Assembly: GCA_947495135.1 (NCBI GenBank)
Contig: CANLXN010000009.1
Coordinates: 116,165-180,164 of the forward strand
Reading direction: 5' to 3'
Origin: an uncultured Flavobacteriaceae bacterium
GTDB lineage: Bacteria > Bacteroidota > Bacteroidia > Flavobacteriales > Flavobacteriaceae
Length of the DNA: 64,000 nucleotides
Shown: positions 42,046-58,905 of the stretch, one piece after another
Layout of the letters: every line of letters starts with the position of its first letter
How positions within the stretch are numbered: position 1 is the stretch's first letter
Position numbers and translations under genes: made by a program
The notes under the pieces: generated by a model
The model's database searches: none
The model's input: the letters and a program-made list of their open reading frames with translations, nothing else
What the model was told of the DNA's origin: nothing

Positions 42046-43464
42046 CTATTCAATTATTATTGGTTCAATAATACTTTTTCTTCTTACGGAGGTTTCACCG
42101 AAATGATATTTGATTCCTACTCCAAAGTTATAAAAGTAGTCATCTCTTTTCCCGTTTTCTACAAGATCTAATTCATCAGAAAACGAAATGTTTTGTTCGC
42201 CAAAGGCCTCCAGGCTAATTGCTGAAGAAAGATTGTAATTAACACCAAGTCCAAACCTAAGTCGCGGTGCAAGTCCAATATTTTTTACCATGTTATTTTG
42301 ACCATCTAAGTCGATTAAATACCCAAAACCAGCGTATAAAACAGGTGTAATATCATCGAGCGGAAGCACACTATATTCTATGTCCAATCCTACAGAAGCG
42401 AAATCTTTCGAAAAATCGTCTCCCGTTTCAAAGCGGTAAACCCCTCCATTTGCTATAAGGCTAAAATTCTTACTTACTCTTCTTGAGTAATTAATTTCAC
42501 CACTATAACCAAGTCTCTTCTTGGAGTAATCGCCATTAAGAATTGGAAATCCTAGGCTTAAACCTACTGCATCTTTGGAGGTTCTATCGATTTGTTTACG
42601 GTCGTAAAGTAACTTAGATTCTTCATAATCCTTTTCTTCTCGATATGCCTCAATTAGTTCATCATCTACACCATCTTTGGTAGACCAAAGATCATCTTCA
42701 ATACCTTCGATAATCAAGGACTCCACGGCTTTCTCTATAGCGTCTTTGAGAGCTAGTTCTACTGGCTCATTTTTAGTAAATCCAGTTTCTGCTTCTAATA
42801 GTCGTTGGAAATTTACATATCGAAAAACTCCTACATCTACTGCTTGAGATAGAATAGTTTTTGAAACATATACTGTTTTCAATATCCTTCCATTGGAAGT
42901 TGATACAGCGCGCAAGTAGACGGTAATTCTGTCTTGTCTATATTGCGTAGAACCGCCTACACCAAAATAGCGAGCTCCAGCACCTCCTGTAAGTATATTA
43001 GTATCATAGGAGATGATCCCTCCTTCTAATAATATACCTGCATAAAGCAATGGCGGTAAGTTAGGTTCGTTCGGATTTTTATTCTTTCTGTATTCATCCC
43101 TGGTAGAACGAATAATGTTTCTTTCATTTAGGAGGTTAGACAAGTTTTCTCGCTCAATAGTATTAAACCAACGAGAATCTTCTAACGCTTTTATAAGAAC
43201 TGTAGTCGCACCTTGTGGGACTGCAGTACTGAAGGTACTACCCGCTTCGGTACTTTTATATTGCCCTGTTTGATCCTTAAAGTTATAAACACCCACCACT
43301 ATTGGTTCGGCTGGCATTGGCAACTCACGTAAAATCTTAGTTCGTGGAGATAACTCCCCAGTTCTAGCAGGCTGTTGCGATACGGGTTGATTAAAATAAC
43401 TCCCACAACTAGTTGCCATTAAGCCACACCCAAGTATTGTCAAAAATTTCAGATAATGTTTCAT
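42046..43464 (-). CDS. csgG: Curli secretion channel CsgG with C-terminal beta-barrel extension
   Basis: Lipobox ATSC; VYNFKDQTGQYK, STAVPQGA, SRWF...ERENLSNLLNERNIIR, GGIISYDTN, GVGGSTQYRQD; start moved to MKHYLK. Confidence 0.93.
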   Translation of the reverse strand: MKHYLKFLTILGCGLMATSCGSYFNQPVSQQPARTGELSPRTKILRELPMPAEPIVVGVYNFKDQTGQYKSTEAGSTFSTAVPQGATTVLIKALEDSRWFNTIERENLSNLLNERNIIRSTRDEYRKNKNPNEPNLPPLLYAGILLEGGIISYDTNILTGGAGARYFGVGGSTQYRQDRITVYLRAVSTSNGRILKTVYVSKTILSQAVDVGVFRYVNFQRLLEAETGFTKNEPVELALKDAIEKAVESLIIEGIEDDLWSTKDGVDDELIEAYREEKDYEESKLLYDRKQIDRTSKDAVGLSLGFPILNGDYSKKRLGYSGEINYSRRVSKNFSLIANGGVYRFETGDDFSKDFASVGLDIEYSVLPLDDITPVLYAGFGYLIDLDGQNNMVKNIGLAPRLRFGLGVNYNLSSAISLEAFGEQNISFSDELDLVENGKRDDYFYNFGVGIKYHFGETSVRRKSIIEPIIIE

Positions 43465-43471
43465 GCAGCGT

Positions 43472-43870
43472 TTAATTTGGAACGATAATTTGCGTTTGTT
43501 CACCTGTGTTGGTGTCTAAGATATTTATGACTAATCCTTCGGCCGAATCAAAAATCTCTAGAGATAAGCTACCAAAGCTGAAAGATCCTTCTTCAAGCCC
43601 TTCGCCCAATTGCGAAGTAAATAAGCTTCTGGACAATTGCCCAAGGATTTGACGATTCAAATTAGCTGCAAACTCTTCGAGTTCTGTTCTATCCCTATCT
43701 TCAGCACTAGGGTCTGTGAAGGAGTTTTGAGCATTGGCAGAGGCCAGCAATTGCTGATACATAAAGGTATCTCCACCGCCAAAATTTGGATTCTTAGGTC
43801 TGTAGGATAGTTGTTGACCAACGCAAGCGCAAGTAAACAGAATACAAACCGTAGTGATAAGTATTTTCAT
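43472..43870 (-). CDS. csgF: Curli assembly protein CsgF
   Basis: QQLSYRPKNPNFGGG...LLASANAQN N-terminus; C-terminal TGEQTQIIVP. Confidence 0.92.
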   Translation of the reverse strand: MKILITTVCILFTCACVGQQLSYRPKNPNFGGGDTFMYQQLLASANAQNSFTDPSAEDRDRTELEEFAANLNRQILGQLSRSLFTSQLGEGLEEGSFSFGSLSLEIFDSAEGLVINILDTNTGEQTQIIVPN

Positions 43871-43881
43871 GGGTTTATTGA

Positions 43882-44703
43882 TTAGTAACGTTTAATTTTT
43901 TTTGAATCACGTTTTTGGCGTCGTAAATGCAAGCTTACTCTTGCCATGGTTGCGTCTTTCATTTTTTGAAGGTAGTCAATTCCTGGAATTGCGAAAAACC
44001 GAAAAACCAGTGTTTCCCCTACAAAAACTTCGATTCGAGTGTTTCGACCTACGCCTAACACTTCTTTAATTTTTATAATTTCTTCGGAATTGATATTGTT
44101 CTGTAGGTATTGACTATAGAACATCTGATAAAAATCTTTTCCTGGTTTCGTTTTTGTTTCTTCCAAAACAATGCCTGTAAGAACGATACCATCACCCCCA
44201 GCGCTTGCAACATCCTGACTGTCAATTTGTTTAGGCTGATTATCCGATTGATCATCTTGGACTACGCTAACAGCATCTGGATCGTTGTAAGATGGATTAT
44301 CGTTAATAACTACTCGATCCTTTCCTACCACTTGTTCATCTTGATTGTATATCAGTAATAGGATAATTATTCGATCCTGTGTATCTAGATTGATAGTCGT
44401 TTTGGCGAGATTGGCTTTTTCACCCGTGGCAAGTACAACCCTGCCAGATTGCTCATTCTTCGATTTATTTTTTGTTTCGGAATTTGTTCTGAAAACGGTA
44501 AATACATATTTCAGACTTTGACTCAATTGAGACTTATTGAAAGCCGATGTGGTAATTTCAATGAATTCGTAATTGGAGTCTAAATTGATTTTTGCCTCCA
44601 CCTCTGTATTATAGATCTGTGCATTCATGTTCTCAGTGGTTAAAGAGAGAAAAACGCAGGCTAATAAAAAGTAGGTAAAAGGGGTAGGCTTGCTAAAAAG
44701 CAT
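43882..44703 (-). CDS. csgE: CsgE-family protein with extra N-terminal CsgH-like beta domain
   Basis: C-terminal GIVLEETKTKPGKDFYQMFY is the CsgE motif; position between csgB and csgF. Confidence 0.78.
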   Translation of the reverse strand: MLFSKPTPFTYFLLACVFLSLTTENMNAQIYNTEVEAKINLDSNYEFIEITTSAFNKSQLSQSLKYVFTVFRTNSETKNKSKNEQSGRVVLATGEKANLAKTTINLDTQDRIIILLLIYNQDEQVVGKDRVVINDNPSYNDPDAVSVVQDDQSDNQPKQIDSQDVASAGGDGIVLTGIVLEETKTKPGKDFYQMFYSQYLQNNINSEEIIKIKEVLGVGRNTRIEVFVGETLVFRFFAIPGIDYLQKMKDATMARVSLHLRRQKRDSKKIKRY

Positions 44704-44708
44704 GAGGT

Positions 44709-45215
44709 TTAGAAATTTCGAACAATAACACTTTGCCCTTCACCTTGCATGGTGACTTTTAATTTTTCTGAAATACCATTTCCGCCATACCAGGTAAGGT
44801 TTTGGTTATTTCCATTTTGGATAATTTCTCCTTGAAGCGATTCAACATTTAACCCTGAGAAGTTAAGAACGCTGTTGTTATCTCCATTTTGAAGTATTTT
44901 TTCTTGAATAGTATTACCTCGAAGGTTTACATAAACATCATTATCGTCCCCTATTTGAACGAATTGAACATCACTTCTCTGAGACTGAACCCTTGCAGTG
45001 ATATCATTATTATTACCCACTTGTTGGATAAAAACAGAATTTCCATTAGAAGAAGTGGACATTTGTGAAGAATTCTGTGAAGACAAAAAGTTATTTTCAG
45101 AATTCTCTTGCTTGAAAGCATCAAGCGCTGTAGTAGTATCGTTATATGTTTGTCCAAAGCTAAGACTTGCTGTAAAAAGCATGGCTAGCATCAGGTATAT
45201 TTGTTTAGTCTTCAT
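44709..45215 (-). CDS. csgB: Minor curlin / nucleator-like (CsgB-like)
   Basis: 168 aa; signal peptide; degenerate QxGxxN repeats (QQVGNNN, VQIGDDN, LQNGDNN, IQNGNNQ) with basic residues; heads the secretion operon. Confidence 0.75.
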   Translation of the reverse strand: MKTKQIYLMLAMLFTASLSFGQTYNDTTTALDAFKQENSENNFLSSQNSSQMSTSSNGNSVFIQQVGNNNDITARVQSQRSDVQFVQIGDDNDVYVNLRGNTIQEKILQNGDNNSVLNFSGLNVESLQGEIIQNGNNQNLTWYGGNGISEKLKVTMQGEGQSVIVRNF

Positions 45216-45293: not shown

Positions 45294-45402
45294 ATAATTG
45301 ATATTTGTACTTGAAATTTTATTTAAAAACAAGTATAAGAGCCAGGCAAAAACCCAACCCTTATACTGTTTTTCATAATCGTCAATTTAATTGATCTGAT
45401 TA

Positions 45403-46857
45403 TTAGTTGTTTTGTGTAACAGAAGAAACGTTTGAGTTTCCTACTTGGTTAACAGAACTCATGTGGTTGTTACCATTTTGGTCAACAGTACTTAAGTTGA
45501 AGTCTCCCATTTGGTTTACAACACTCATGTGCTGTAATCCATCTTGATCAACAGTACTAGAGTTAGCTAAACCATCTTGATCAACATCAGAGTTGTTCAT
45601 GTCTCCTGTTTGAGTAACTGCAGATCCATTAAGAGTTCCAATTTGATCAACATCAGAAACATTCATATCTCCTGTTTGAGTAGTGCTTGATCCGTTGCTG
45701 TTTCCAGTTTGAGAAACATCACTATCATTAGAATCACCAACTTGCTGAGTTACTTGCGTATTTAAGTCTCCGGTTTGAGCAACATCACTATCGTTTAGGT
45801 CCCCAATTTGAAGAACGAACGATCCATTGTTGTTTCCAGATTGAGCAACGAAAGACTCGTTATCATCTCCAAACTGACCTGTAGTAGAAGAGTTTCCGTT
45901 TCCAATTTGGTAGGTCTCAGCATCATTAGAGTTTCCTCCTTGTTGCGTTAACTGTCCATTGTTGTTTCCTTGCTGCTCAACATAACTAGCATTAGTATCC
46001 CCAGCTTGGATTACATCACTGTTGTTTTGGTTTCCAATTTGGAAAGTCAACGCATAGTTAGCGTTACCATCTTGGTCGATAGTACTGTTGTTATCGTTAC
46101 CGTACTGACCAGCACCGCCGTAGTTATCGTTACCGTCTTGGTCGATATCGGAAGTGTTGTTGTCACCAATTTGCTCGTTTTGACCCCAGTTGTTGTCTCC
46201 GTTTTGGTTTACATCACTATCGTTACCTACTCCAGTTTGCCAGATATCAGAGATGTTTCCATTTCCATTTTGATCTGCCAGTGCATCGTTCATGTTTCCG
46301 TTTTGCTCTACGTAAGAATCGTTGGCATCACCACCATATTGATTAACTAAAGAAACGTTATCATTCCCAGACTGATATACTTCACTTACATGGAAACCAT
46401 TTCCAGATCCGTATCCTTGGAATACATCACTATCGTTGTTGTTACCGTCTTGAGAAACAATGCTTGAGCTACTGAAGCCCCACTGATCTGTATAAGCGTC
46501 GTTATCAACACCAACTTGGTCTACATCACTAATATTATCATCTCCATCCTGCCAGATGAAGTTATTGTTAGTTGCACCACTTTGGTTTACAGAAGAAATG
46601 TTTCTATCTGAAAGCCCATCTCCACCTGGTCCACCACCAGTTTGTCTTGTCTCATTAGTGTTAGAAACACCATTTTGATCTACGGTTGAATCATTGTCGT
46701 CTCCAACAGAATCAACATCCGAAGAATTTGTTAGCCCAGTTTGAACCACTGAAGATGAATTACCACTTCCAATTTGATCCACTGTACTGACATTAAATTG
46801 CCCGAACATTACAGAGCCACACATTAGGGCCGCTGCGGTTAAAAATACATTTTTCAT
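45403..46857 (-). CDS. csgA: Long major curlin 1 (484 aa)
   Basis: Signal peptide, then continuous 11-residue QxGxxNxSxVx half-repeats ending QNN. Confidence 0.9.
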   Translation of the reverse strand: MKNVFLTAAALMCGSVMFGQFNVSTVDQIGSGNSSSVVQTGLTNSSDVDSVGDDNDSTVDQNGVSNTNETRQTGGGPGGDGLSDRNISSVNQSGATNNNFIWQDGDDNISDVDQVGVDNDAYTDQWGFSSSSIVSQDGNNNDSDVFQGYGSGNGFHVSEVYQSGNDNVSLVNQYGGDANDSYVEQNGNMNDALADQNGNGNISDIWQTGVGNDSDVNQNGDNNWGQNEQIGDNNTSDIDQDGNDNYGGAGQYGNDNNSTIDQDGNANYALTFQIGNQNNSDVIQAGDTNASYVEQQGNNNGQLTQQGGNSNDAETYQIGNGNSSTTGQFGDDNESFVAQSGNNNGSFVLQIGDLNDSDVAQTGDLNTQVTQQVGDSNDSDVSQTGNSNGSSTTQTGDMNVSDVDQIGTLNGSAVTQTGDMNNSDVDQDGLANSSTVDQDGLQHMSVVNQMGDFNLSTVDQNGNNHMSSVNQVGNSNVSSVTQNN

Positions 46858-47030
46858 AATCTTAAAAGTATTAAATTTGGTTATTAAAATTGTTTTCAGG
46901 TATCTATGTTTAGTTGAACATATTCATTTATAAAAACGCGTCTAACACAGGGCTTTCTAAAAAAAGCACTACGAGCTTGCCGAGTTTAATTTTGAGGAGA
47001 GGGATTGGTAAGCTTAATATTTAGTTATAG

Positions 47031-47216
47031 TTGCACTTCAAATATCTAACAAATATCAATACGTTCTATACGTATAAACACTTACAAGCTAACACCTTAA
47101 CATTATTTGTAGGAAAAAACCTTGTTTTTAAAATATGGTATATCGACAGAGTGAAATCAAACATCGATGAACTACCAAAATGTATACAAATTACACATAA
47201 GTTAAAATTTTGTTAA
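47031..47216 (-). promoter_or_regulatory. Curlin promoter module, copy 1
   Basis: Ungapped match to 50132-50317; TCGAY repeats at 47143/47164; GTTAA repeats at 47201/47212. Confidence 0.7.
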
Positions 47217-47634
47217 AATACTTCATCCTTTACGTCTATTCAATTTATGCTAGATGAACGCTCAAATTTCACCGATGAATTACTATTCTAAGCCTTCTCT
47301 TTTTCCTACAAAAACAACTGTCATGGCATTTCACATTAAAAACGATTTAGAAAGAACATATGCCGGTAGGCTTAAATATTAATCCATCCATAAAATATAC
47401 CTTCAAATGTGTTCTTCAATTAGACGATCCTGCTCTTTTTGCCAACCTACCCCTGTGGTTATAACGAGAAAAAGTTAGATGGAAAATTATATTCTATCAT
47501 TTAGCACATTGGCCCAATTCCGAAAATTTCAGCAATGAGTAGCGTTCAAAACTATTGAAATTAATCTCCAGGCATATGCTTACTCCAACAATAATACTGA
47601 AGCATGCCAGCAAACAAGGCGTCAAAAAATGCAA

Positions 47635-47667
47635 TAAAAAAGAGCGACCCAATTATGAGTCGCTCTT
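47635..47667 (-). terminator. Terminator of curlin 2
   Basis: Minus strand GAGCGACTCATAATTGGGTCGCTCTTTTTT. Confidence 0.8.
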
Positions 47668-47716
47668 CATACTGATATTTAGAAAGTTTCAACTAAACTT
47701 TCCAAAGAATAATTAA

Positions 47717-49930
47717 TTAGTTGTTCTGAGTTACAGAAGAAGTATTGCTGTTTCCAATCTGGTTAACCGTACTTGTGTGGTTGTTTCCATTTTGATCAAC
47801 AGTACTTAAGTTGAAATCTCCAACTTGGTTAACAGTACTCATGTGCTGTAATCCGTCTTGGTCAACAGTGCTTGAGTTAGCCAAACCGTTTTGGTCTACA
47901 TCACTCATGTTCATATCTCCTGTTTGAGTAACTGCAGATCCGTTAAGAGTTCCAGTTTGGTCAACATCAGAAATGTTCATGTCTCCTGTTTGAGTAGTAC
48001 TAGATCCGTTGCTGTTTCCGTTTTGAGAAACATCGCTATCGTTAGAGTTACCTACTTGCTGAGTTACTTGCGTATTCAAATCTCCGTTTTGGTCAACATC
48101 GCTATCGTTTAAATCTCCAATTTGAAGAACGAAAGATCCGTTGTTGTTTCCAAACTGTCCAACGTTAGAGCTGTTATTGTCTCCAAACTGTCCAGTAGTA
48201 GATCCGTTTCCGTTTCCGTACTGCTGTACAAAGCTAAAGTTAGTATCTCCATCCTGCACAGTAAGGTTACCATTGCTGTTTCCGAACTGATCTACTAAAC
48301 TAAAGTTAGAGTCACCATCTTGATCTACTTGAGAATTGTTAGTTAATCCAATTTGAGAAACTAAAGATTCGTTAAAGTCACCATCTTGATCAACATCACT
48401 GTTGTTAGCGGTACCGTCTTGTCCAACAAAAGAATCGTTGTTGTCTCCAGTCTGGTCTACATCACTTACGTGATCGTCTCCACCAGCTCCAAAGTATCCC
48501 TGTAATACTTCAGAGTTGTTGTTATCTCCAATAGAAGTAACTGAACTACTATTATTGTTTCCAATTTGCTCTACGTTAGAAGTGTTCATGTTTCCGAACT
48601 GTTGAACAACACTACCGTTGTCGTTTCCTAATTGGTTTACAGCAGAAACGTTGTTGTCTCCTGTGTATCCTTGTTGTACAAAAGAGTTGTTGTTATCTCC
48701 AGTAGAAGTTACGTCAGACTCGTTAGTTACACCAATTTGTCCTACAAAAGAGCTGTTACCGTTTCCAACCTGATCTACGTCAGAATCGTTAGCAGTACCG
48801 TCTTGTCCAACAAAAGAATCGTTGTTGTCTCCAGTCTGGTCTACATCACTTACGTGATCGTCTCCACTTACGAAGTATCCTTGAAGAACTTCAGAAGTAT
48901 TGCTGTTTCCATTTTGGTCAACAGTACTCATGTTGTTATTTCCAATTTGCTCTACAATAGAACCGTTACTATCTCCAAACTGCCCAACATAACTATCGTT
49001 AGTCATTCCTGTTTGTAGAACAGTAGATCCATTGCTGTTTCCAAACTGATCTGTCCAGCTACTGTTAGAATCTCCGTTTTGGTCTGTACTAGCAGAGTTA
49101 GAATCTCCGAAAGACTGAACTACAGAAAAGTTGCTGTTTCCATCTTGGTCTGTGTCATTCGTATTTAAGTTTCCTACTTGAGCAACATACGAATAGTTAC
49201 TGTCTCCAGTCTGGTCTACAGTACTAGTATTGCTGTCTCCAGTGAATCCCTGATAAGACTGAGAAGTGTTAGCATCACCATTTTGGTTGATAGTACTTGT
49301 GTTAGCATTACCATCTTGCCACATTTGAGAGGAATTACTATCTCCTGTTTGATCTGTAAAGCTAGAGTTAGAATTTCCTGTTTGATCCTCATCAGAAACG
49401 TTTAAATCTCCATTTTGAGTTACAAAAGAAACATTCCCATTCCCTAATTGGTCTTGCGTAGAATCATTCATGTCTCCTACTTGAGCGTTGTAACCAATGT
49501 TACCATCACCTGTTTGAGTGATTGCAGAATTATTGTCATCAGACCCATCAGTATCTCCGTACTGATCGATATGACCAACGTTTGCATTACCAGATTGAGT
49601 TACAGAACCAACGTTGTTATCATTAACAGAAGCCCCACCACCAAAACCTTGGTGTACGTCTGCTTCGTTATTATTTCCAGTTTGAAGAACATCAGCTTCG
49701 TTTCCGTTACCTAATTGGTCAACATCGTTATTGTTAGCGTCTCCTAACTGATCTACGTCAGAATCGTTGTTGTCTCCAACTTGGTCTACCGTAGAAACGT
49801 TTACCGCACCGGTCTGGTCAACATCGGATGCATTACCGTTACCAGTCTGATTGACTGCGCTGTTGTTAAATTGTGCGAACGCCACTGCTCCAATGAACAT
49901 TGCCGCTACACTTAATACTACTTTTTTCAT
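47717..49930 (-). CDS. csgA: Long major curlin 2 (737 aa)
   Basis: MKKVVLSVAAMFIGAVAFA|QFN; about 60 half-repeats; ends QNN. Confidence 0.92.
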   Translation of the reverse strand: MKKVVLSVAAMFIGAVAFAQFNNSAVNQTGNGNASDVDQTGAVNVSTVDQVGDNNDSDVDQLGDANNNDVDQLGNGNEADVLQTGNNNEADVHQGFGGGASVNDNNVGSVTQSGNANVGHIDQYGDTDGSDDNNSAITQTGDGNIGYNAQVGDMNDSTQDQLGNGNVSFVTQNGDLNVSDEDQTGNSNSSFTDQTGDSNSSQMWQDGNANTSTINQNGDANTSQSYQGFTGDSNTSTVDQTGDSNYSYVAQVGNLNTNDTDQDGNSNFSVVQSFGDSNSASTDQNGDSNSSWTDQFGNSNGSTVLQTGMTNDSYVGQFGDSNGSIVEQIGNNNMSTVDQNGNSNTSEVLQGYFVSGDDHVSDVDQTGDNNDSFVGQDGTANDSDVDQVGNGNSSFVGQIGVTNESDVTSTGDNNNSFVQQGYTGDNNVSAVNQLGNDNGSVVQQFGNMNTSNVEQIGNNNSSSVTSIGDNNNSEVLQGYFGAGGDDHVSDVDQTGDNNDSFVGQDGTANNSDVDQDGDFNESLVSQIGLTNNSQVDQDGDSNFSLVDQFGNSNGNLTVQDGDTNFSFVQQYGNGNGSTTGQFGDNNSSNVGQFGNNNGSFVLQIGDLNDSDVDQNGDLNTQVTQQVGNSNDSDVSQNGNSNGSSTTQTGDMNISDVDQTGTLNGSAVTQTGDMNMSDVDQNGLANSSTVDQDGLQHMSTVNQVGDFNLSTVDQNGNNHTSTVNQIGNSNTSSVTQNN

Positions 49931-50131
49931 AATTTGTGAAGTTTTAAATAAAGGTTACTATACTAGTTGTATTGGTTTTAATTTATGTTTGATTTGTTCT
50001 TAAATTAACTTTTTCGCGCTTCTTTAACCCACATGTAAAACACCAGCGCTTATTTGTAGCTGATCGTTAAAACAGTGACTTTAAAAAAAATTGTTGAGGA
50101 GGAAGAGTCAGTTGTTTAAATTGGTAATTAG

Positions 50132-50317
50132 TTGCATGTCAAAGGTGCAACAAAAACTAATACCTGCTATACGTACAAACACTTAGTACCGTATTTATCG
50201 AATTGTTTTGAAGGAAAATTCCTCATTTGTTGTTTATGGTATTCCGACAGACTTCACAATTTGACCGACAAACTACGCGATTGTATACAAATTACACATT
50301 TGTTAAAATTTTGTTAA
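50132..50317 (-). promoter_or_regulatory. Curlin promoter module, copy 2
   Basis: CCGAC repeats at 50244/50265; TGTTAA at 50301/50312; minus-strand CACCTTTG (-7-like). Confidence 0.7.
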
Positions 50318-50520
50318 AAAACAAACGATAACGTTGTAGAAATAATCATCCTCGACAAACTGTAAAATATTATCGCTCAATAGAATGGCTAGCAAATTCT
50401 ATTCCTACAAATATTCATGAACGAAGCTTTTTTGGAGGTAAGCATATTTCAGAAAAAAATACTTCTTTGGTATTTATAAACATCAATCCTATTTTATGGG
50501 TCGATTGTTCAAATTGTTTA

Positions 50521-50556
50521 AAAAAAAAGCGCAAATCATTAAAGACTTACGCTTTT
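50521..50556 (-). terminator. Terminator of curlin 3
   Basis: AAAAGCG...CGCTTTT with poly-U on the minus strand. Confidence 0.65.
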
Positions 50557-50590
50557 ACCAACAAACTAACTTTTAGTGGCTACTAAACTC

Positions 50591-52237
50591 CTAGTTGTTT
50601 TGAGAAACATAAGAAGTGTTGTTATTTCCAACTTGGTTCACCGTACTTGAATGGTTGTCACCGTTTTGATCAACAGTACTTAAGTTATAGTCGCCCATTT
50701 GATAAACGGTGCTCATATGCTCTAAACCATCTTGATCTACTGTGCTTGAGTTAGCCATCCCATTTTGGTAAACGTCGCTAACATTCATATCGCCTGTTTG
50801 GGTAACTGCAGATGCATTAAGAGTTCCTGTTTGATCTACGTAAGATATATTCATATCTCCTGTTTGAGCGGTGCTCGATCCGTTGCTATTTCCGGTTTGG
50901 TCTACATAACTGGTATTCATGTAACCAACTTGCTCAGTAACTTGCGTGTTTAGGTCTCCGTATTGATCTACATAACTTGCGTTCATATCCCCAATTTGCA
51001 GAACGAAAGATCCGTTGTTGTTTCCATACTGCGCTACATTGGAAGTGTTTTCATATCCATACTGTCCTACACTAGATGCATTTCCATTACCAGTTTGGTT
51101 TACTTCGCTATAGTTAGCTTCACCTTCCTGATACGTTAAACTACCATTGTAATTTCCGGTTTGGTTGACATCGCTCAAGTTATAATCACCTTCTTGATCC
51201 ACCGTAGAGTAGTTGCCCTCTCCATTCTGCGCTACAGAAGACTCATTTGCTTCGCCATACTGATACACTTCAGATTCGTTGTAATCTCCATCTTGCGCTA
51301 CTAAAGAAACATTTTCATCTCCTGTTTGATCGGTATAGCTATCGTTATAGTTTCCAATTTGAGTAACGGCTGATGCATTATAATCGCCATACTGACTCGT
51401 ATAATTTGAGTTATAATCTCCTTCTTGCGCAACAATGCTGCTGTTATATGCTCCTTCCTGATAAACTTCAGAATCGTTAGCCTCTCCAACTTGCAGGACT
51501 AATGAAGCATTGTAATCACCATACTGATCTACTTCCGAGTAGTTATCCTCACCATCTTGACCAACTAAAGACAAGTTTTCATCCCCAGTTTGATACACAT
51601 TACTATCGTTATAGTTTCCAATTTGTACCACTGCAGACACATTGTAGTTTCCATCTTGTTCTGTATAACTTGTATTGTAATCTCCAGTCTGCGTTTCACT
51701 AGATGTATTGAAATCGCCGTACTGCTCTACTTCCGTCTCATTAGCGTTACCCAATTGATCTTGTGTAGAACTGTTGTAGTCACCTTCTTGGCTATTAAAT
51801 GCGTAATTATCATCTCCTGTTTGGTAAATGGCAGAATCGTTATAATCAGATCCATTGCTACCACCTTCTTGGTCAATGTGACCCTCATTGTCGTTTCCAG
51901 ATTGAGTTACTGAAGCAACGTTATAGTCGTTGTCGCCAGCACCAGAACCAAAACCTTGATGTATGTCTGCTTCGTTGTAATCTCCATTCTGAAGAACATC
52001 TGCTTCGTTACCATCACCGAGCTGATCTACATCACTGTTGTTATAGGCTCCAACCTGCTCTACATTAGCGTAGTTGTAATCTCCATATTGGTCTACAGTA
52101 GAACCATTATATGCTCCCACCTGATATACGTCTGAAACATTTTCGTTTCCAGTTTGTTGAACTGCGTTGTCATTAAATTGGGCGAAAGCTACTGCGCCGA
52201 TTAGCATTGCTGCTACACTTAAAATTCTCTTTTTCAT
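50591..52237 (-). CDS. csgA: Long major curlin 3, Tyr/Glu-enriched (548 aa)
   Basis: Same signal peptide and repeat frame; QYGDYN-type repeats; about 49 Tyr by manual count. Confidence 0.92.
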   Translation of the reverse strand: MKKRILSVAAMLIGAVAFAQFNDNAVQQTGNENVSDVYQVGAYNGSTVDQYGDYNYANVEQVGAYNNSDVDQLGDGNEADVLQNGDYNEADIHQGFGSGAGDNDYNVASVTQSGNDNEGHIDQEGGSNGSDYNDSAIYQTGDDNYAFNSQEGDYNSSTQDQLGNANETEVEQYGDFNTSSETQTGDYNTSYTEQDGNYNVSAVVQIGNYNDSNVYQTGDENLSLVGQDGEDNYSEVDQYGDYNASLVLQVGEANDSEVYQEGAYNSSIVAQEGDYNSNYTSQYGDYNASAVTQIGNYNDSYTDQTGDENVSLVAQDGDYNESEVYQYGEANESSVAQNGEGNYSTVDQEGDYNLSDVNQTGNYNGSLTYQEGEANYSEVNQTGNGNASSVGQYGYENTSNVAQYGNNNGSFVLQIGDMNASYVDQYGDLNTQVTEQVGYMNTSYVDQTGNSNGSSTAQTGDMNISYVDQTGTLNASAVTQTGDMNVSDVYQNGMANSSTVDQDGLEHMSTVYQMGDYNLSTVDQNGDNHSSTVNQVGNNNTSYVSQNN

Positions 52238-52409
52238 AAATGAGGTTTTAAAATTAAATTGATTAAAAAATATACTTAGTGTACTAATTCAATAAGTTAT
52301 GAGTGTATGTACCACTCTGGAGAATCCATCAGATTTGACTCTGAAAGACATTCCATTGCTTTTAGGATTTAAAATTTCGAGGAGAATTGGTATTCGTTGT
52401 AATCCTTTG

Positions 52410-52594
52410 CTGCGGTTCAAAGATGCTGCAAAAACTAATTCCCAGAATACGCGTATACACTTACCTACCGCGATTTTAACAATTTTTGTAGGAGAATACG
52501 GTGATTTTATTTTTCAACCCATCGACAGAAACGAATAAAAATCGGCCAAAAGCGCAAATTTGCAATTTTTGGCTAAATGTTAAAATTATGTAAA
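52410..52594 (-). promoter_or_regulatory. Curlin promoter module, copy 3
   Basis: TTCAAAGATG (minus CATCTTTG), ATACGCGTATACACTTA, TTGTAGGAG, ATCGACAGA, TGTTAA/TGTAAA at 52578/52589. Confidence 0.65.
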
Positions 52595-52981
52595 TTACCT
52601 ACAGTATCATTTTAAAAATGTAAAACCAACGTTTAAAAACTAAATTAATCGACAAAAAACACAGCCAACGCTTGCCTTTTTCTTAGAAAAATGACTAAAA
52701 AATCAATTATTACAAATGAAAGAAATAAAACGAATCGAAACCAGGTTCTTCTTGACGCTAAAAAAGCTCATTAATAATAGAAATGGAATGGAACATATTG
52801 GAACTATTATTACAACCGCTCCAAATCTGATTGTAAGACCAGGGTCCCTTTAGAGTTAGGATACGTTTCAACTTTTAGAATAGATTAGTTTCTTCAGTAT
52901 AACAGCTACTGGCTCATGGTTGGATCGATAGAGAAAGACCCTAAAGAAGTAAGAATCGAAAAATACGCAATATGATTGCAT

Positions 52982-53013
52982 AAAAAAAGAGCGACTCATT
53001 GCGAGTCGCTCTT
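52982..53013 (-). terminator. Terminator of curlin 4
   Basis: AAAAAAAGAGCGACTC-ATTGC-GAGTCGCTCTT; near-identical to the curlin 2 terminator. Confidence 0.85.
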
Positions 53014-53057
53014 GATACTGAAAACTAGAAAGCCTAAAACTTTCTCTAGAATAATTA

Positions 53058-55160
53058 TTAGTTGTTCTGAGTTACAGAAGAACTGTTGTTGTTTCCAATT
53101 TGGTTAACCGTACTTGTGTGGTTGTTACCGTTTTGGTCAACTGTACTTAAGTTGAAGTCTCCAACTTGGCTTACCGTACTCATGTGTTGGAATCCATCCT
53201 GATCTACTGTACTTGAGTTAGCCAAACCATCTTGGTCAACATCACTCATGTTCATGTCTCCTGTTTGAGTCACTGCAGATCCGTTAAGAGTTCCAGTTTG
53301 ATCAACATCAGATATGTTCATGTCTCCTACTTGAGTAGTGCTAGATCCGTTGCTGTTTCCGTTTTGAGAAACATCACTATCGTTAGAATCACCAATTTGC
53401 TGAGTTACTTGCGCATTTAAATCTCCAGTTTGAGCAACATCACTATCGTTTAAATCTCCAATTTGAAGAACGAAAGAGCTATTGTTGTTTCCAACCTGAT
53501 CAACATTAGAACCGTTATTGTTTCCAAATTGTCCTGTAGAAGAACCGTTACCGTTTCCAGTTTGGTTGACTAAGCTAAAGTTAGTATCTCCTTGTTGCAT
53601 AGTAAGGTTTCCGTTAGCGTTACCAATTTGAGCAACTGAACTATTGTTACCGTTTCCAGTTTGGTCTACATCACTGTTGTTAAAGTCTCCATCTTGCTCA
53701 ACATAAGAAATGTTATCATCTCCAAGCTGATCTACAGTAGAAGTGTTGTCGTTAGAATCAAAAGTCTGATAAACCTCAGAACGGTTACGATCTCCCGTTT
53801 GTTGAACAGAACTGTTGTTGTTGTTTCCAATGTATCCTTGGATAGCATAAGAGTAGTTATTGTCTCCAGTTTGATCTACATCAGAAACATTGTTGTCTCC
53901 TCTCTGCCCTAAAATAGCAGTGTTAGCATTTCCTGTTTGATCGGTATCGCTAATGTTGCTATCTCCAAATTGCCAAGTAAGACCGTAGTTATTGTCTCCT
54001 GTTTGAGTGATATCAGATTCTCCATTCGTAGATTCAAATCCAGCACCTAATATTGCGTTTCCTTGATCTACATCCACAACGTTTCCATTACCAAACTGAT
54101 CTACATCAGAATCGTTATCGTCTCCGTATGCTTCAACATCTGCAGTGTTATTGTCTCCTTGTTGGTTGATATCAGAATTGTTATCAAAACCACGTTGAGC
54201 CATTAAGCTTGTGTTATTGTCTCCCGTTTGATCTGTATCACTATCGTTGTCATCACCTTCTTGATACTCTGTAGAAACATTGCTGTTTCCTTCTTGATCT
54301 ACATTAGAATCGTTATCGTCTCCAATTTGATCTGTATCTGCAGCATTGAAGTTACCGTGCTGATCGATGTCAGAATCGTTTCCGTTTCCTAATTGATCAA
54401 TACTAGCAACGTTGTCGCTAGAAGTCCTTCCAGAACCGTCTGAGAAACGCTGATCGATATGACCATCGTTATCATCTCCTAATTGATATACAGTTGCATC
54501 GTTGTTGTTGTTTCCAGTTGGGCTAGAAAAACCACCTTGGTGTACATCTGAAGAGTTGTCATTTCCAAACTGCTCTACGAATGAGTTGTTCCCATCACCG
54601 TCTTGAATAACATCACTTACATTATCGTCTCCTTGCTGATCTACCCATGAACTATTTGCGTTCCCATCTTGATCTACATCAGATTCGTTTGTAACACCAA
54701 TTTGACCTACGAAAGAGAAGTTTCCGTCTCCGTCTTGATCTACATCACTGTCGTTAGCTGTACCATCCTGTCCTACGAAAGAAAAGTTACCATCGCCTGT
54801 TTGATCTACATCACTTACGTGATCGTTTCCACCTGCGAAATATCCTTGAAGTACTTCCGAAGAGTTGTTATCTCCGGTAGAAGTAACATCAGATTGGTTG
54901 TTTTCTCCAAATTGCTCTACAGTAGAAGTGTTAGCGTCTCCAACCTGATCTACATCAGAATCGTTAGATACACCAACTTGGTCTACGTCAGAACCGTTGT
55001 TGTCTCCTGTTTGATCAACAGTAGAAACGTTCGTCATTCCTGTTTGATCTACATCAGATCCATTACCTGAACCAGTCTGATTGACTGTGCTCACGTTAAA
55101 TTGTGCAAATGCTGTTGCTCCAATGAACAATGCCGCTGCACTTAATACTACTTTTTTCAT
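53058..55160 (-). CDS. csgA: Long major curlin 4 (700 aa)
   Basis: True start MKKVVLSAAALFIGATAFA at 55160; repeats end QNN. Confidence 0.92.
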   Translation of the reverse strand: MKKVVLSAAALFIGATAFAQFNVSTVNQTGSGNGSDVDQTGMTNVSTVDQTGDNNGSDVDQVGVSNDSDVDQVGDANTSTVEQFGENNQSDVTSTGDNNSSEVLQGYFAGGNDHVSDVDQTGDGNFSFVGQDGTANDSDVDQDGDGNFSFVGQIGVTNESDVDQDGNANSSWVDQQGDDNVSDVIQDGDGNNSFVEQFGNDNSSDVHQGGFSSPTGNNNNDATVYQLGDDNDGHIDQRFSDGSGRTSSDNVASIDQLGNGNDSDIDQHGNFNAADTDQIGDDNDSNVDQEGNSNVSTEYQEGDDNDSDTDQTGDNNTSLMAQRGFDNNSDINQQGDNNTADVEAYGDDNDSDVDQFGNGNVVDVDQGNAILGAGFESTNGESDITQTGDNNYGLTWQFGDSNISDTDQTGNANTAILGQRGDNNVSDVDQTGDNNYSYAIQGYIGNNNNSSVQQTGDRNRSEVYQTFDSNDNTSTVDQLGDDNISYVEQDGDFNNSDVDQTGNGNNSSVAQIGNANGNLTMQQGDTNFSLVNQTGNGNGSSTGQFGNNNGSNVDQVGNNNSSFVLQIGDLNDSDVAQTGDLNAQVTQQIGDSNDSDVSQNGNSNGSSTTQVGDMNISDVDQTGTLNGSAVTQTGDMNMSDVDQDGLANSSTVDQDGFQHMSTVSQVGDFNLSTVDQNGNNHTSTVNQIGNNNSSSVTQNN

Positions 55161-55392
55161 AATGTGAAGTTTTTTAAAAAAGGTTACTATACTAGTTGTA
55201 TGTAGCTGAAAAAGTTGTGAATTTTTCAGCATTTCAAATATTAGGATAAATATTTATTCCTACATACGTAGTAACACGTACTGTAGGAATACCCAATAAA
55301 TTAAATAGGAAATTACTGATAAAAAAGTCAATTTAATCGGTATAATTATATTTTTAATGGCTCAAAAACACAATTTCCTACAAAACCCTATA

Positions 55393-55409
55393 TGTTAAAT
55401 TTATGTTAA
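55393..55409 (-). promoter_or_regulatory. TGTTAA-N5-TGTTAA direct repeat upstream of curlin 4
   Basis: TGTTAAATTTATGTTAA; same 11-bp period as the other copies. Confidence 0.6.
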
Positions 55410-55706
55410 ATTAAAATTTGTTCATGTAGTCAACATTTTACCATCGACATAAGACATTCTTTTTCGCTCAAATGCATAATGTTTTCTTCTGAAATTTGCG
55501 AAAAACTCAAAAAAGAGCATCGAAAACATCAAATTCGAAATATTTCCTACAAAAAAATTAAATTTTACGAATGAAGACCTCCACTTTCGCATCCCTATAA
55601 ATGCGGGATACGCCATTCAAAAATGACATAACAAGGAAAATCTGTCACTACTCGCCCTACAAATCCGTAAAGAGTTGATATACAGAAATTTAAAAAAAGT
55701 AAACCA

Positions 55707-56065
55707 CCAGTTATTCGGTACTATGGACGAAGTATTGCCAACTCCTAGCTGTTATACATTACTAGAATGACTATTTGGAGTTTGAGATATCTCAGTGGTA
55801 TTTAAATGACCGCTTTGAAGTACATCCGCCTCATTAGCGCCACCCAAATCATCGGTATCTGCAGAATTATCATCCCCTAATTGACTAAATGAGAGCTATT
55901 AAAATCTCCTTGCTGATCTAGGATAGTGTACTTGCTCGCTCCTGTCTAATCTCTATCTGAAACATTAGTATCTCCAGGTTAAGTGGTCACTCGAGCATTG
56001 AGTTGAGCAAACAATGTTCCTCCAAATAATAAGAACAAGGGTGTACATATGGAAATCTTATGCAT
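55707..56065 (-). pseudogene. Degraded short curlin pseudogene
   Basis: MHKISICTPLFLLFGGTLFA|Q signal, then TT*PGDTNVSDRD*TG...DQQGDFNSS, a frameshift, QLGDDNSADTDDLGGANEADVLQSG...NV*QLGVGNTSSIVPNN. Two in-frame stops fall at repeat Gln positions. Confidence 0.8.
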
Positions 56066-56400
56066 AATGGCAGGTATTTTGGTTGAAGTATTTAACATCC
56101 AATTGTACTGCCATTTGATATATCCGCAAAGTTTCCAAGTGTTTTTACTGAAATGATCGACATTCAAAAAAAGGGATTCTCTCTTTTTTAACCGAAATTT
56201 TCGAAATCCAGTGATGGTTCTAAAAAAATACTTTCTGACCGACCCATGTGTAGAAAGAAATTCGTACCCAACCAATATAAACAGAGGAAAATTGAATTGT
56301 GAAAATTTCCGAAGAAATACGTTTTCAAATTCACCAACTTATATCCAAATTATCAATCGTCCATGGTATCCCCCCATCGTATATCACCAACTACTTTCAT

Positions 56401-56433
56401 AAAAAAAGCGGAAACCATTTCTGATTTCCGCCT
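56401..56433 (-). terminator. Terminator of curlin 5
   Basis: AAAAAAAGCGGAAA...TTTCCGCCTT. Confidence 0.7.
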
Positions 56434-56465
56434 TCTCAAAGTAAATAATATATTGGTAATATATC

Positions 56466-58388
56466 TTAGTTGTTTTGAGTAACTGTAGAACCATTCATGT
56501 TTCCAATCTGGTTTACTGTACTAGTGTGGTTGTTACCATTTTGACTTACATCACTGTTGTTCATGTTACCATCTTGTAACACAGTACTCATGTGAGAAAG
56601 ACCAGTTTGTCCAACAACACTTGTGTTATCGTCACCCATTTGATCTACATCTGAAGTATTCATATCTCCAGTCTGAACTACGTCTGAATCATTTCTGTCT
56701 CCAGTTTGGTCTACATCTGAAACATTCAGGTCTCCAGCTTGTTCAACATAACTTTCGTTATCGTCACCCATTTGATCTACCGTAGAAAGGTTGTCGTTAG
56801 ATCCAAAAGTTTGGTATACATAAGACTCGTTTCCGTCCCCTGTTTGCTGAACTGAACTATTGTTGTTATTTCCAACATATCCTTGAATAGCATAAGAGAA
56901 GTTATCGTCCCCTGTTTGATCCACATCAGAAACGTTGTTGTCTCCTCTTTGACCCAAGATAGCACTGTTACCATCCCCTGTTTGGTCGGTATCGCTAATG
57001 TTGCTATCTCCAAATTGCCATGTAAGACCGTAGTTGTTATCTCCTGTTTGAGTGATATCAGACTCACCATTAGTCGATTCAAATCCAGCTCCTAATCCTG
57101 AATTTCCTTGATCAACGTCTACTTCATTGTTGTCACCAATTTGATCTACATCAGAATTGTTATCGTCTCCAAATGCTTCAACATTAGAAATGTTGCTATC
57201 TCCTGTTTGATCTACTCTAGAGAAGTTTGCATCTCCTTGTTGGATCATAGTACTGGCGTTCATATCTCCAGTTTGCCAAGTGTAACTGTTGTTCAGGTCA
57301 CCTATTTGATCTTCATCTGAAGTGTTAGAATCACCAAATTGGTTGTTACGGCTAAAGTTGTTGTCTCCTGTTTGGTCAATTGTAGACATGTTCATGTCTC
57401 CAGACTGTTGGATCGTACCACTGTTAGAATCTCCTGTTTGAGTTACAGCTCCGTTGTTATCATCTGCACCGTCTGCAGAGAATAATTGGTAAACGTTACC
57501 ACTGTTTCCATTACCTGTTTGAGTAATAGCAGAAACATTGTTGTCGTTGTCCTCAGTAGAAACACCTGTTAAACCTTGCCAAGATACAGCAACGTTGTTA
57601 TCACCTGTTTGCATAACATCAGACTCATTTCCGTTACCTAATTGCTCAGTTAATGAAGTGTTAGAGTTTCCGTTTTGGTCAACATCAGAGTTGTTAGAGT
57701 CTCCTCTTACAATAAGATCTGCGCTATTAGAATCACCAAATTGATCTACCGTACTTACGTTAGAGTTTCCAGTTTGAGACATTGAATTAGCGTTGAAATC
57801 ACCAGACTGGCTTGTAAAGCTAGAGTTAGAGTCACCTATTTGATCCTCATCTGAAGCGTTGTTATCTCCATTTTGAATAACGAAAGAGGTGTTTAAGTTT
57901 CCAACTTGGTCTTGAGTAGAACCATTCATGTCACCTACTTGAGAATTATACCCAAAGTTATCATCTCCTGTTTGGTTAATTGCAGAGTTGTTATCGTCAG
58001 ACCCATCTGTATCACCGTACTGGTCGATGTGACCTGTGTTTCCATTCCCAGATTGAGTTACAGAACCTACGTTGTTGTCATTAATTGAAGCACCAGTACC
58101 AAAACCTTGGTGTACGTCTGCTTCGTTGTTATCTCCTGTTTGAAGAACATCGGCTTCGTTTCCGTTACCTAATTGATCTACGTCGTTGTTGTTAGAGACA
58201 CCTACCTGATCAACATCAGAATCGTTGCTGTCTCCTACTTGATCAACTGTAGAAGCGTTCGTCGCTCCTGTTTGGTCAACATCAGATCCGTTTCCGTTTC
58301 CTGTTTGATTGACAGTACTCACGTTAAATTGTGCAAAAGCCACTGCTCCAATGAACATAGCTGCTACACTTAATACTACTTTTTTCAT
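56466..58388 (-). CDS. csgA: Long major curlin 5 (640 aa)
   Basis: Same signal peptide as curlin 2; repeats end QNN. Confidence 0.92.
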   Translation of the reverse strand: MKKVVLSVAAMFIGAVAFAQFNVSTVNQTGNGNGSDVDQTGATNASTVDQVGDSNDSDVDQVGVSNNNDVDQLGNGNEADVLQTGDNNEADVHQGFGTGASINDNNVGSVTQSGNGNTGHIDQYGDTDGSDDNNSAINQTGDDNFGYNSQVGDMNGSTQDQVGNLNTSFVIQNGDNNASDEDQIGDSNSSFTSQSGDFNANSMSQTGNSNVSTVDQFGDSNSADLIVRGDSNNSDVDQNGNSNTSLTEQLGNGNESDVMQTGDNNVAVSWQGLTGVSTEDNDNNVSAITQTGNGNSGNVYQLFSADGADDNNGAVTQTGDSNSGTIQQSGDMNMSTIDQTGDNNFSRNNQFGDSNTSDEDQIGDLNNSYTWQTGDMNASTMIQQGDANFSRVDQTGDSNISNVEAFGDDNNSDVDQIGDNNEVDVDQGNSGLGAGFESTNGESDITQTGDNNYGLTWQFGDSNISDTDQTGDGNSAILGQRGDNNVSDVDQTGDDNFSYAIQGYVGNNNNSSVQQTGDGNESYVYQTFGSNDNLSTVDQMGDDNESYVEQAGDLNVSDVDQTGDRNDSDVVQTGDMNTSDVDQMGDDNTSVVGQTGLSHMSTVLQDGNMNNSDVSQNGNNHTSTVNQIGNMNGSTVTQNN

Positions 58389-58587
58389 AATTGTGAAGTT
58401 GTTAATAAAGGTTATAATACTTGTTAGTTGAACAGATAAGTGAGGTTACAATTATCTGTTGGTCAAATATCATAAGAATTATCAATTTTTAGGTACGTAC
58501 TAATACGTAGCCACCCATAAAAGAGGGTAAAACCGTAAGAAAAATGGTAGGAAAAATGCTTAATCAACGATTAATTATAAATTAGAA

Positions 58588-58639
58588 TCGATGAACTACA
58601 CAATTTTGATCGATGAAAGAAATGTTAATTTTATGTTAA
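58588..58639 (-). promoter_or_regulatory. TCGATGAA repeats plus TGTTAA-N5-TGTTAA upstream of curlin 5
   Basis: TCGAT at 58588/58610; TGTTAA at 58623/58634. Confidence 0.6.
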
Positions 58640-58905
58640 AATCTATAAATGAAACAAATTAGGTTTTTTTAATTCGCTGAAAGACAATCTTTACCGACAA
58701 CAGACCTGCTTTTTGTAAAAGAAATCTAAAGAAATACTAAACAGAAAGAAGTTTCTTACAAATAATACGCAATCGTAATAGCTTTACTATTACAAGTTGT
58801 AAGAAGTTACCTAGCATAAAACCGCAAAAAGCTATGTCTTTTTTTTCGCTATATATAGGTACAATTTAAACTTCAAAAATAGATGTCATTCAACTAGAAC
58901 TTAAC

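Follow-up and report, generated by a model that had tools for sequence, protein, structure and literature searches.

The 64,000-nucleotide (nt) stretch of DNA analysed here (hereinafter the window) comes from an uncultured Flavobacteriaceae bacterium (NCBI GenBank assembly GCA_947495135.1, contig CANLXN010000009.1, positions 116,165 to 180,164 of the forward strand) and contains a tandem array of five large curlin paralogs, which we denote C1 to C5 by rising coordinate and all of which lie on the minus strand. An initial annotation, made from the sequence alone, had described five tandem paralogs of 484, 737, 548, 700 and 640 amino acids (aa), and we find open reading frames (ORFs) of precisely these sizes at the positions given for them:

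45403..46857, minus strand: C1, curlin paralog of 484 aa with about 21 repeats (Pfam Curlin_rpt, E 1.3e-45)
47717..49930, minus strand: C2, curlin paralog of 737 aa with about 33 repeats (Curlin_rpt, E 2.4e-68)
50591..52237, minus strand: C3, curlin paralog of 548 aa with a Tyr/Glu-rich surface (Curlin_rpt, E 5.5e-70)
53058..55160, minus strand: C4, curlin paralog of 700 aa (Curlin_rpt, E 6.3e-80)
56466..58388, minus strand: C5, curlin paralog of 640 aa with a divergent C-terminal module (Curlin_rpt, E 9.1e-66)

The 700 aa of C4 are counted from the conserved start MKKVVLS, the reading frame being open up to 55232. The Curlin_rpt model recognizes all five proteins in a Pfam search (E 1e-45 to 6e-80), and C1 matches the Pontibacter curli subunit (PDB 8c50) with an E value of 3.8e-36 in a phmmer comparison. 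Three hallmarks of the curlin family, namely the repeat kernel, a Sec leader and linkage to csgE, csgF and csgG, are found in C1-C5. Moreover, the small curlin, CsgE, CsgF and CsgG are encoded directly downstream on the same strand, as expected from the earlier proposal that the curlin paralogs feed one secretion operon. By these sequence signatures, C1-C5 are giant curlin paralogs that are predicted to feed a single CsgEFG secretion operon. No further curlin genes were detected in the other 40 kb of the window. A reading of C1-C5 as cargo of the type IX secretion system (T9SS) was dropped, given that the Pfam search shows only Curlin_rpt and no C-terminal sorting domain was detected.

The five proteins are built from an 11-residue half-repeat, N-x-S-x-V-x-Q-x-G-(D/N)-x, with 35-51 copies per protein, that is, about 21-33 full 22-aa repeats, which is close to the roughly 20-30 counted previously. 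This pattern agrees with the published curlin kernel, N-$-Psi-$-Psi-$-Q followed by X-G-X-X (Sleutel et al., 2023; PMC10192328), and the core, in which N, S, V, Q and G predominate, is the same across the paralogs. Since both half-repeats are alike, C1-C5 fall into the class that Sleutel et al. call 'centrosymmetric' (PMC10192328). The AlphaFold2 model of C1 is all-beta, with 42 short strands at 11-residue spacing and a mean predicted local distance difference test (pLDDT) score of 78.6 that rises above 90 in the C-terminal half. Each chain begins with a 19-aa hydrophobic leader whose predicted cleavage site is AFA|Q (FG|Q for C1) and which, as judged by inspection, is kept in 16 orthologs and paralogs. 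The canonical repeat starts already at the first mature residues, so that there is no N22-like segment, and no degenerate N-terminal repeat is apparent in C1-C5; in published surveys, N22 is the exception. The mature chains contain 0 Lys, 0 Cys and 0-6 Arg, carry a net charge of -65 to -113 and end, without exception, in QNN, in full accord with the initial picture of acidic, N22-less chains nearly free of Lys, Arg and Cys. Assignment to enterobacterial CsgA sensu stricto was rejected on the lack of N22 and on scores that fall mostly under the cut-off of the CsgA equivalog model, NCBIfam NF007470 (118-164 against a cut-off of 160, with only C4 just above it). Furthermore, the CsgB model outscores NF007470 for all five proteins; the CsgA/CsgB split is not assignable outside Gammaproteobacteria (PMC3521004).

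Sequence conservation along the chains is concentrated at their ends. Among C1-C5, identity is 72% over the first 22 mature residues and 78% over the last 22, compared with 44% for register-matched interior repeats, and the same terminal conservation (63-65%) extends across 16 curlins from seven genomes, most of which have His instead of the kernel Asn in their last repeats. In curli polymerisation, the last repeat of one subunit stacks on the first repeat of the next, and docking in mixed fibres via the conserved curlin kernel has been argued for (PMC10192328). Conserved ends combined with variable interiors are what would be expected if the paralogs are able to dock both with one another and with a shared nucleator. 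Thus, the co-polymers invoked in the initial annotation gain in substance, to the extent that the conserved chain ends make co-polymerisation of C1-C5 into mixed fibres plausible; the same conserved ends could equally be an export signal that takes the place of N22.

The interiors differ at outward-facing and arc positions, and this divergence is most conspicuous in C3, which contains 49 Tyr and 32 Glu as opposed to 10 Tyr and 7-14 Glu in each of C1, C2, C4 and C5. These residues are placed at outward or arc positions 2, 4, 6, 8 and 11 of the 11-mer, which upholds the earlier suggestion that the paralogs present different surfaces, and the composition hints that the surface of a C3 fibre is chemically distinct and possibly adhesive or cross-linkable.

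Pairwise comparison of the genes reveals a mosaic. C1-C4 have in common a 3' module of 500-700 nt with 76-85% identity, C2 and C5 are 80% identical over their first 662 nt, and a middle block of 508 nt is common to C4 and C5 (81% identity). The C-terminal 165 aa of C5 show no more than 41-45% identity to C1-C4; their nearest counterpart, at 53%, is the distal paralog of one of the related loci (L001). In the shared blocks, synonymous divergence (dS) is 0.5-1.7 and the ratio of nonsynonymous to synonymous divergence (dN/dS) is 0.07-0.21, indicating that the duplications and exchanges are old and that each copy is under purifying selection. A sixth, short copy has decayed:

55710..56065, minus strand: decayed short curlin gene (pseudogene) with an intact-looking signal peptide, MHKISICTPLFLLFGGTLFAQ, followed by curlin-like repeats

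The repeats of this gene are broken by at least three stops and one frameshift, and its presence in the C5-C4 spacer explains why that spacer, at 1305 bp, is the longest in the array.

These observations bear on two of the alternative explanations. Highly repetitive coding sequence is the kind of material from which an assembler could build a false array; against this, the shared modules average only 76-85% nucleotide identity, the internal repeat units are 60-81% alike in DNA, and the spacers are unique. Furthermore, four independent runs, of metagenomes or isolates from marine and biofilm samples, yield contigs that are 95-99% identical to the window and cover all five genes and several gene/spacer junctions; these contigs are of low depth and inform the junctions, and for its continuity as a whole the array depends on the original assembly. 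Mis-assembly of the array is very unlikely, and we regard an artefactual origin as next to negligible. Under the second alternative, the copies mainly raise the total output of curlin and the differences among them are neutral drift. The identical core motif and the one promoter module common to all copies (see below) are compatible with such a dosage effect, which nevertheless appears improbable when it is considered that the paralogs are old and yet each is intact under purifying selection, that the Tyr/Glu substitutions of C3 are concentrated at outward and arc positions, and that the decay of the short copy shows that unneeded copies get lost.

Each of the five genes is preceded by a module of about 180 bp, in which five blocks, A to E, can be distinguished: A, TTTAACAnAAnTTTAACA; B, TCTGTCGAT; C, TTTTCCTAC; D, GTA(A/C)GTGTTTnTACGTA; and E, ATATTTGA(A/C). 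The modules and the palindromic TACGT-N6-ACGTA boxes within them are located as follows:

47037..47217, minus strand: C1 promoter module, blocks A-E being TTTAACAnAAnTTTAAC, TCTGTCGAT, TTTTCCTAC, GTAAGTGTTTATACGTA and ATATTTGAA, with 40 nt from D to E and 132 nt from A to D; palindromic box at 47069-47084
50138..50318, minus strand: C2 promoter module, blocks and spacing as in C1; palindromic box at 50170-50185
52416..52595, minus strand: C3 promoter module, with the most diverged block D of the five; diverged copy of the box at 52448-52464
55233..55410, minus strand: C4 promoter module, block E starting 81 nt before the ATG, leader of about 75 nt; TACGTGTTACTACGTA, 0 mismatches; palindromic box at 55265-55280
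58462..58640, minus strand: C5 promoter module, block E starting 82 nt before the ATG, leader of about 75 nt; TACGTATTAGTACGTA, 0 mismatches; palindromic box at 58494-58509

The distance from D to E is exactly 40 nt in all five modules and that from A to D is 129-132 nt; the sequences of blocks B and C vary. The spacers in which the modules reside are AT-rich (28-33% GC) and mostly unrelated to one another. The control region of 230-370 bp proposed initially matches this module, whose upstream edge lies 250-388 bp before the respective ATG; in their entirety, the spacers measure 517-1305 bp and exceed the proposed region.

The -7 box of Bacteroidota promoters has the consensus TAnnTTTG, and block E may be read as a -7 box of this TTTG type. 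The sigma-70 promoter scan showed no enrichment (35 sites compared to 46 expected), the sigma-70 consensus not being applicable to Bacteroidota promoters. Block D is the palindrome TACGT-N6-ACGTA and lies 24 nt upstream of the TTTG -7-like box; in addition, the curlin promoters contain a direct repeat, TTTAACA-N4-TTTAACA, located about 130 nt further upstream than the palindrome. With one mismatch allowed, the palindrome occurs six times in the 64-kb window, compared to 1.2 expected, and four of the six occurrences are in curlin promoters. It is also present upstream of all three curlin genes of Olleya namhaensis (locus L008, positions 2409, 4167 and 5472), of two Ulvibacter curlin genes (locus L089, positions 2601 and 4817) and of several metagenomic ones, and across 965 kb of related loci, 10 of the 19 boxes fall in the 3.7% of the sequence that lies upstream of curlins. 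This distribution makes TACGT-N6-ACGTA a candidate operator for a regulator. Of regulators, the window encodes just one obvious pair, about 30 kb away from the array (13799-16245, plus strand); it consists of an ORF resembling histidine kinases and a response regulator of the NarL/LuxR type.

If block E is taken as the -7 box, the predicted leaders are about 75 nt long for C4 and C5 (55161-55232 and 58389-58461) and about 180-210 nt long for C1-C3 (46858-47036, 49931-50137 and 52238-52415). The long leaders of C1-C3 carry a common CT-rich TCTCCTC box. No Rfam family was matched to the leaders, and the Rfam scan of 40000-64000 gave nothing meaningful. At the other end of the transcription units, a strong hairpin followed by a U-run is found within about 30-70 nt after each gene:

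45332..45367, minus strand: C1 terminator, hairpin and U-run, by pattern scan and folding (z-score -6.6)
47639..47668, minus strand: C2 terminator, by pattern scan and folding (z-score -8.6)
50525..50556, minus strand: C3 terminator, by pattern scan and folding
52987..53013, minus strand: C4 terminator, by pattern scan and folding
56402..56437, minus strand: C5 terminator, by folding only and not by the pattern scan; 16-bp stem followed by U7, -23.1 kcal/mol, z-score -7.05

Thus, where most of the genes had been thought to be terminated, all five are, four by the pattern scan and C5 by folding.

The initial annotation went on to interpret the array as a switchable repertoire, and this part does not hold. 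Only weak imperfect inverted repeats of 12-20 nt, none of them convincing, were found around the promoters, the longest homopolymer tract in the array is A9, and no recombinase ORF is present in the array. We therefore rejected phase variation by invertible promoters or slipped strands, for want of flanking inverted repeats, a recombinase and long tracts, and likewise silent-cassette variation of the pilE/pilS kind, given that all five genes possess a start codon, a signal peptide, a promoter module and a terminator and have dN/dS of 0.07-0.21. That all five genes carry one module, its spacing fixed, points instead to common regulation, and the signals as a whole point to five monocistronic genes that would be under a common regulator and not to a switchable set. 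As a separate observation, in Olleya namhaensis (L008, about 4120-4150) a poly-T tract of about 30 nt lies upstream of the middle curlin gene, just upstream of the TACGTA box, and could permit slipped-strand variation in this organism; the window has no counterpart of this tract.

The same body of evidence has to be weighed for a third alternative, a differentially regulated repertoire in which each curlin would be produced under other conditions (surface, salinity, temperature), giving alternative fibres. Monocistronic genes separated by long AT-rich spacers of 517-1305 bp, two classes of leader length, variable promoter blocks B and C and surfaces that differ, as in C3, are all in keeping with this idea, and independent regulation of extra curlin copies has been suggested by Dueholm et al. 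(2012; PMC3521004). The recurrence of the same promoter module at identical spacing in all five genes speaks against it, as does the fact that invertible-promoter repeats, long homopolymers and recombinase genes were not seen in the array, and we consider this repertoire unlikely, albeit less so than a dosage effect.

To place the array in the context of the family, relatives were surveyed with CsgG and CsgF as anchors; a word-prefiltered search with the C2 protein, a low-complexity repeat, returned only distant matches at 26-35% identity. The locus order in Flavobacteriaceae is glnA, large curlin gene or genes, small curlin, long CsgE (the CsgC/H-CsgE fusion described below), CsgF, long CsgG, lipoprotein and purM, and this synteny is seen in Dokdonia, Bizionia, Olleya and Ulvibacter as well as in many marine metagenome contigs; in the window, too, glnA lies upstream of the array. 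In 32 loci for which roughly 10 kb of flank on the upstream side could be inspected, large curlin genes numbered none in 1, one in 16, two in 9, three in 3 and four in 3, and Ulvibacter antarcticus has four inside the flank and another, of 823 aa, running off it, hence at least five. The large curlins of relatives are usually 300-950 aa long, and their spacers measure anything from about 20 bp (operonic) to 1.3 kb. In total curlin coding length, the window, with 3109 aa, exceeds all other loci of the sample, for which the available flank shows about 1800 aa at most.

Copy number and repeat number also vary widely in published surveys. Dueholm et al. (2012; PMC3521004) described curlins with as many as 22 repeats and genomes with as many as six csgA/B homologs (Spirosoma, Rhodopseudomonas) and suggested that extra copies modulate fibre properties, and Sleutel et al. 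(2023; PMC10192328) found 4-62 repeats, with copy numbers declining to 14 per genome and a maximum of 30. The array is thus the upper end of a continuum and is not exceptional. The contention that this degree of expansion is unusual has to be abandoned in view of the 15 of 32 syntenic loci with 2-4 large curlins, the five or more in U. antarcticus and the up to 30 in surveys; the initial annotation itself had counted routine occurrence of such arrays in the family as fatal to its reading, and our copy-number survey of 32 loci finds them to be largely routine, although the array itself is real. In the literature searched, experimental work on curli arrays of Flavobacteriaceae was not encountered. 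Earlier surveys have covered giant as well as multi-copy curlins, so that the array adds a member of a documented kind and leaves current understanding unchanged.

The genes downstream of the array are arranged as follows, in the direction of transcription:

44709..45215, minus strand: small curlin, candidate CsgB-like nucleator of 168 aa with about five repeats and a basic, Lys/Arg-containing C-terminus
43882..44703, minus strand: CsgC/H-like domain fused to CsgE, 273 aa (Pfam CsgE at residues 175-267)
43472..43870, minus strand: CsgF (Pfam CsgF, E 1.3e-29)
42046..43503, minus strand: CsgG lipoprotein with a C-terminal outer membrane protein (OMP) beta-barrel (Pfam CsgG, E 1.7e-66; OMP_b-brl, 29.1 bits)
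40520..42043, minus strand: operon-final lipoprotein of 507 aa with CarboxypepD_reg, FN3-like and beta-propeller-like domains

The small curlin scores 14.5 bits with Pfam Curlin_rpt, below the cut-off of 20.7, whereas its Olleya ortholog passes with 30.4 bits, and its position is conserved in all relatives. In the 273-aa protein, the C-terminal domain has a profile match to 2na4 besides the Pfam CsgE match. The AlphaFold2 model of the whole protein (40-sequence alignment, pLDDT 82.6) has a disordered linker between the domains, and residues 35-133 form a seven-strand immunoglobulin-like beta-sandwich with pLDDT mostly above 90, the two best PDB matches of which are Escherichia coli CsgC (2xsk; template modelling (TM) score 0.80, root-mean-square deviation 2.5 A) and R. 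palustris CsgH (2n59; TM 0.67); the NCBIfam CsgH score is below threshold (24.7 bits as against 35). As judged from the model, the N-terminal domain qualifies as a member of the CsgC/CsgH family and is predicted to be inhibitor-like. The fusion is family-wide in Flavobacteriaceae, with lengths of 240-270 aa in numerous genera and of about 395 aa in Olleya. Bacteroidetes are described as being without a separate csgC (PMC3521004) and as having CsgH-like subfamilies (PMC4838910), and an inhibitor-like domain fused to the secretion adaptor, as modelled here, fits both statements.

CsgG is 472-485 aa long, the likely start at 43464 giving 472 aa, and is nearest to that of U. antarcticus (66% identity), which puts the window within Flavobacteriaceae. 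It exceeds the E. coli protein by about 200 aa, and the extension matches OMP_b-brl and, weakly, the 8-strand barrel of T9SS PorG; the form of about 470 aa is widespread and is the rule in Flavobacteriaceae. Nine small barrels around a nonameric CsgG pore would make for an uncommon arrangement. The start of the 507-aa lipoprotein gene overlaps the csgG stop by 4 bp and a lipoprotein follows csgG in every related locus examined, which suggests that it is likely the fifth member of the curli operon.

The make-up of this operon is pertinent to a further alternative, namely that C1-C5 are not amyloid subunits at all and that they are long, acidic, cation-binding beta-solenoid matrix or adhesin proteins, exported by CsgG and acting as monomers. 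A net charge as extreme as -65 to -113 without any Lys, and 21-33 repeats that make even the monomer a long rod, would suit such proteins, and the literature search found no experimental amyloid data for the family. Nevertheless, the chain termini are conserved in the manner expected of stacking interfaces, the locus has kept CsgF together with a subunit like CsgB and an inhibitor domain like CsgC/H, and the 15-repeat homolog from Pontibacter forms curli fibres (PDB 8c50; PMC10192328), so that we hold this explanation to be decidedly improbable, more so than a dosage effect.

Comparison with characterized and surveyed systems delineates what is shared and what is particular to this locus. The curli of E. 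coli and Salmonella (csgBAC-csgDEFG) are made of the same curlin repeat family, use the same CsgE, CsgF and CsgG and likewise have a small second curlin, CsgB, beside the machinery. CsgA of these bacteria has five repeats and N22, whereas the locus described here encodes five major subunits with 21-33 centrosymmetric repeats and no N22, lacks csgD, has CsgC/H fused to CsgE and an OMP barrel attached to CsgG, and includes an additional lipoprotein gene. Pontibacter korlensis CsgA 'R15.5' (PDB 8c50; Sleutel et al., 2023; PMC10192328) is likewise a centrosymmetric Bacteroidota curlin, built from an 11-aa half-repeat and devoid of N22, and differs in having 15.5 repeats. Genomes with multiple curlins (PMC3521004; PMC10192328) similarly possess several diverged paralogs; in contrast to these, all the copies here form one tandem array upstream of a single secretion operon and have a recognizably common promoter module. 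The loci of U. antarcticus (GCA_003688405.1, L089) and of Olleya, Dokdonia and Bizionia (L001-L008) have an identical gene order, 55-66% identical CsgG, one to at least five large curlins of 300-820 aa with ...VTQ(N/S)(N/D) ends and, in some cases, the TACGT palindrome, and unlike them, the window combines the largest total curlin coding length with long spacers throughout.

Taken together, these lines of evidence lead us to favor, with reasonable though far from full confidence, a co-regulated tandem curlin expansion in which subunits with compatible ends and different surfaces are exported by one CsgG machine; this is the best-supported model of those considered. It is anchored in the gene identities, the repeat architecture, the transcription-unit signals, the age of the paralogs and the purifying selection that acts on them, and the commonness of such arrays in the family. 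We propose that the major curli subunit gene underwent lineage-specific tandem expansion within the conserved Flavobacteriaceae curli (type VIII secretion) locus and that each of the five genes would be transcribed separately, from a promoter of its own up to its own intrinsic terminator. Because the same cis-module, including TACGT-N6-ACGTA, is found in all five promoters, the genes are most likely turned on together by one regulator. The products would be exported by Sec and cleaved at AFA|Q; by homology, the CsgC/H-CsgE fusion probably holds the subunits unfolded, after which they would pass through the CsgG pore and be templated at the cell surface by the small CsgB-like curlin together with CsgF. 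Each subunit is predicted to fold into a long, very acidic beta-solenoid of the centrosymmetric class with the core N-x-S-x-V-x-Q. Given that the first and last repeats are conserved both among C1-C5 and across genera while the interiors differ, head-to-tail stacking of the subunits on one another is probable, and the outcome would probably be mixed or parallel fibres with different surface chemistries, such as the Tyr/Glu-rich one of C3. Co-regulation, co-polymerisation and amyloid formation are those parts of this scheme that we infer.

Several observations weigh against the co-regulated expansion. A Foldseek search of the C1 model against the PDB recovered no curli structure and only generic beta-helix proteins, with a best E value of 0.86. 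The two leader-length classes leave room for differential post-transcriptional control, and the locus was matched in no RNA run in a search of such runs, so that promoters, starts and co-expression are predicted features. Furthermore, the C-terminal module of C5, which is divergent except for its last 30 or so residues, may define a separate fibre class.

A more elaborate version of the co-regulated expansion can be envisaged, namely programmed hetero-polymeric curli in which the cap repeats, including the His-for-Asn substitution, would stand in for N22 as a universal signal for both docking and export, the interiors would pattern the fibre surface, with C3 as the Tyr-rich, adhesive or cross-linkable component, and one TACGT-N6-ACGTA-binding regulator would control the entire set. 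We offer this version as speculation, with a low probability comparable to that of the differentially regulated repertoire.

The CsgC/H-CsgE chaperone-adaptor and the CsgG-barrel fusion are family-wide and merit structural attention. The locus itself represents a clean natural multi-subunit curli system, with five intact, old and differently surfaced subunits, one secretion machine and a common promoter element, and it could be used to ask if curlin paralogs form co-polymers and how, in the absence of CsgD, curli are regulated in Bacteroidota.

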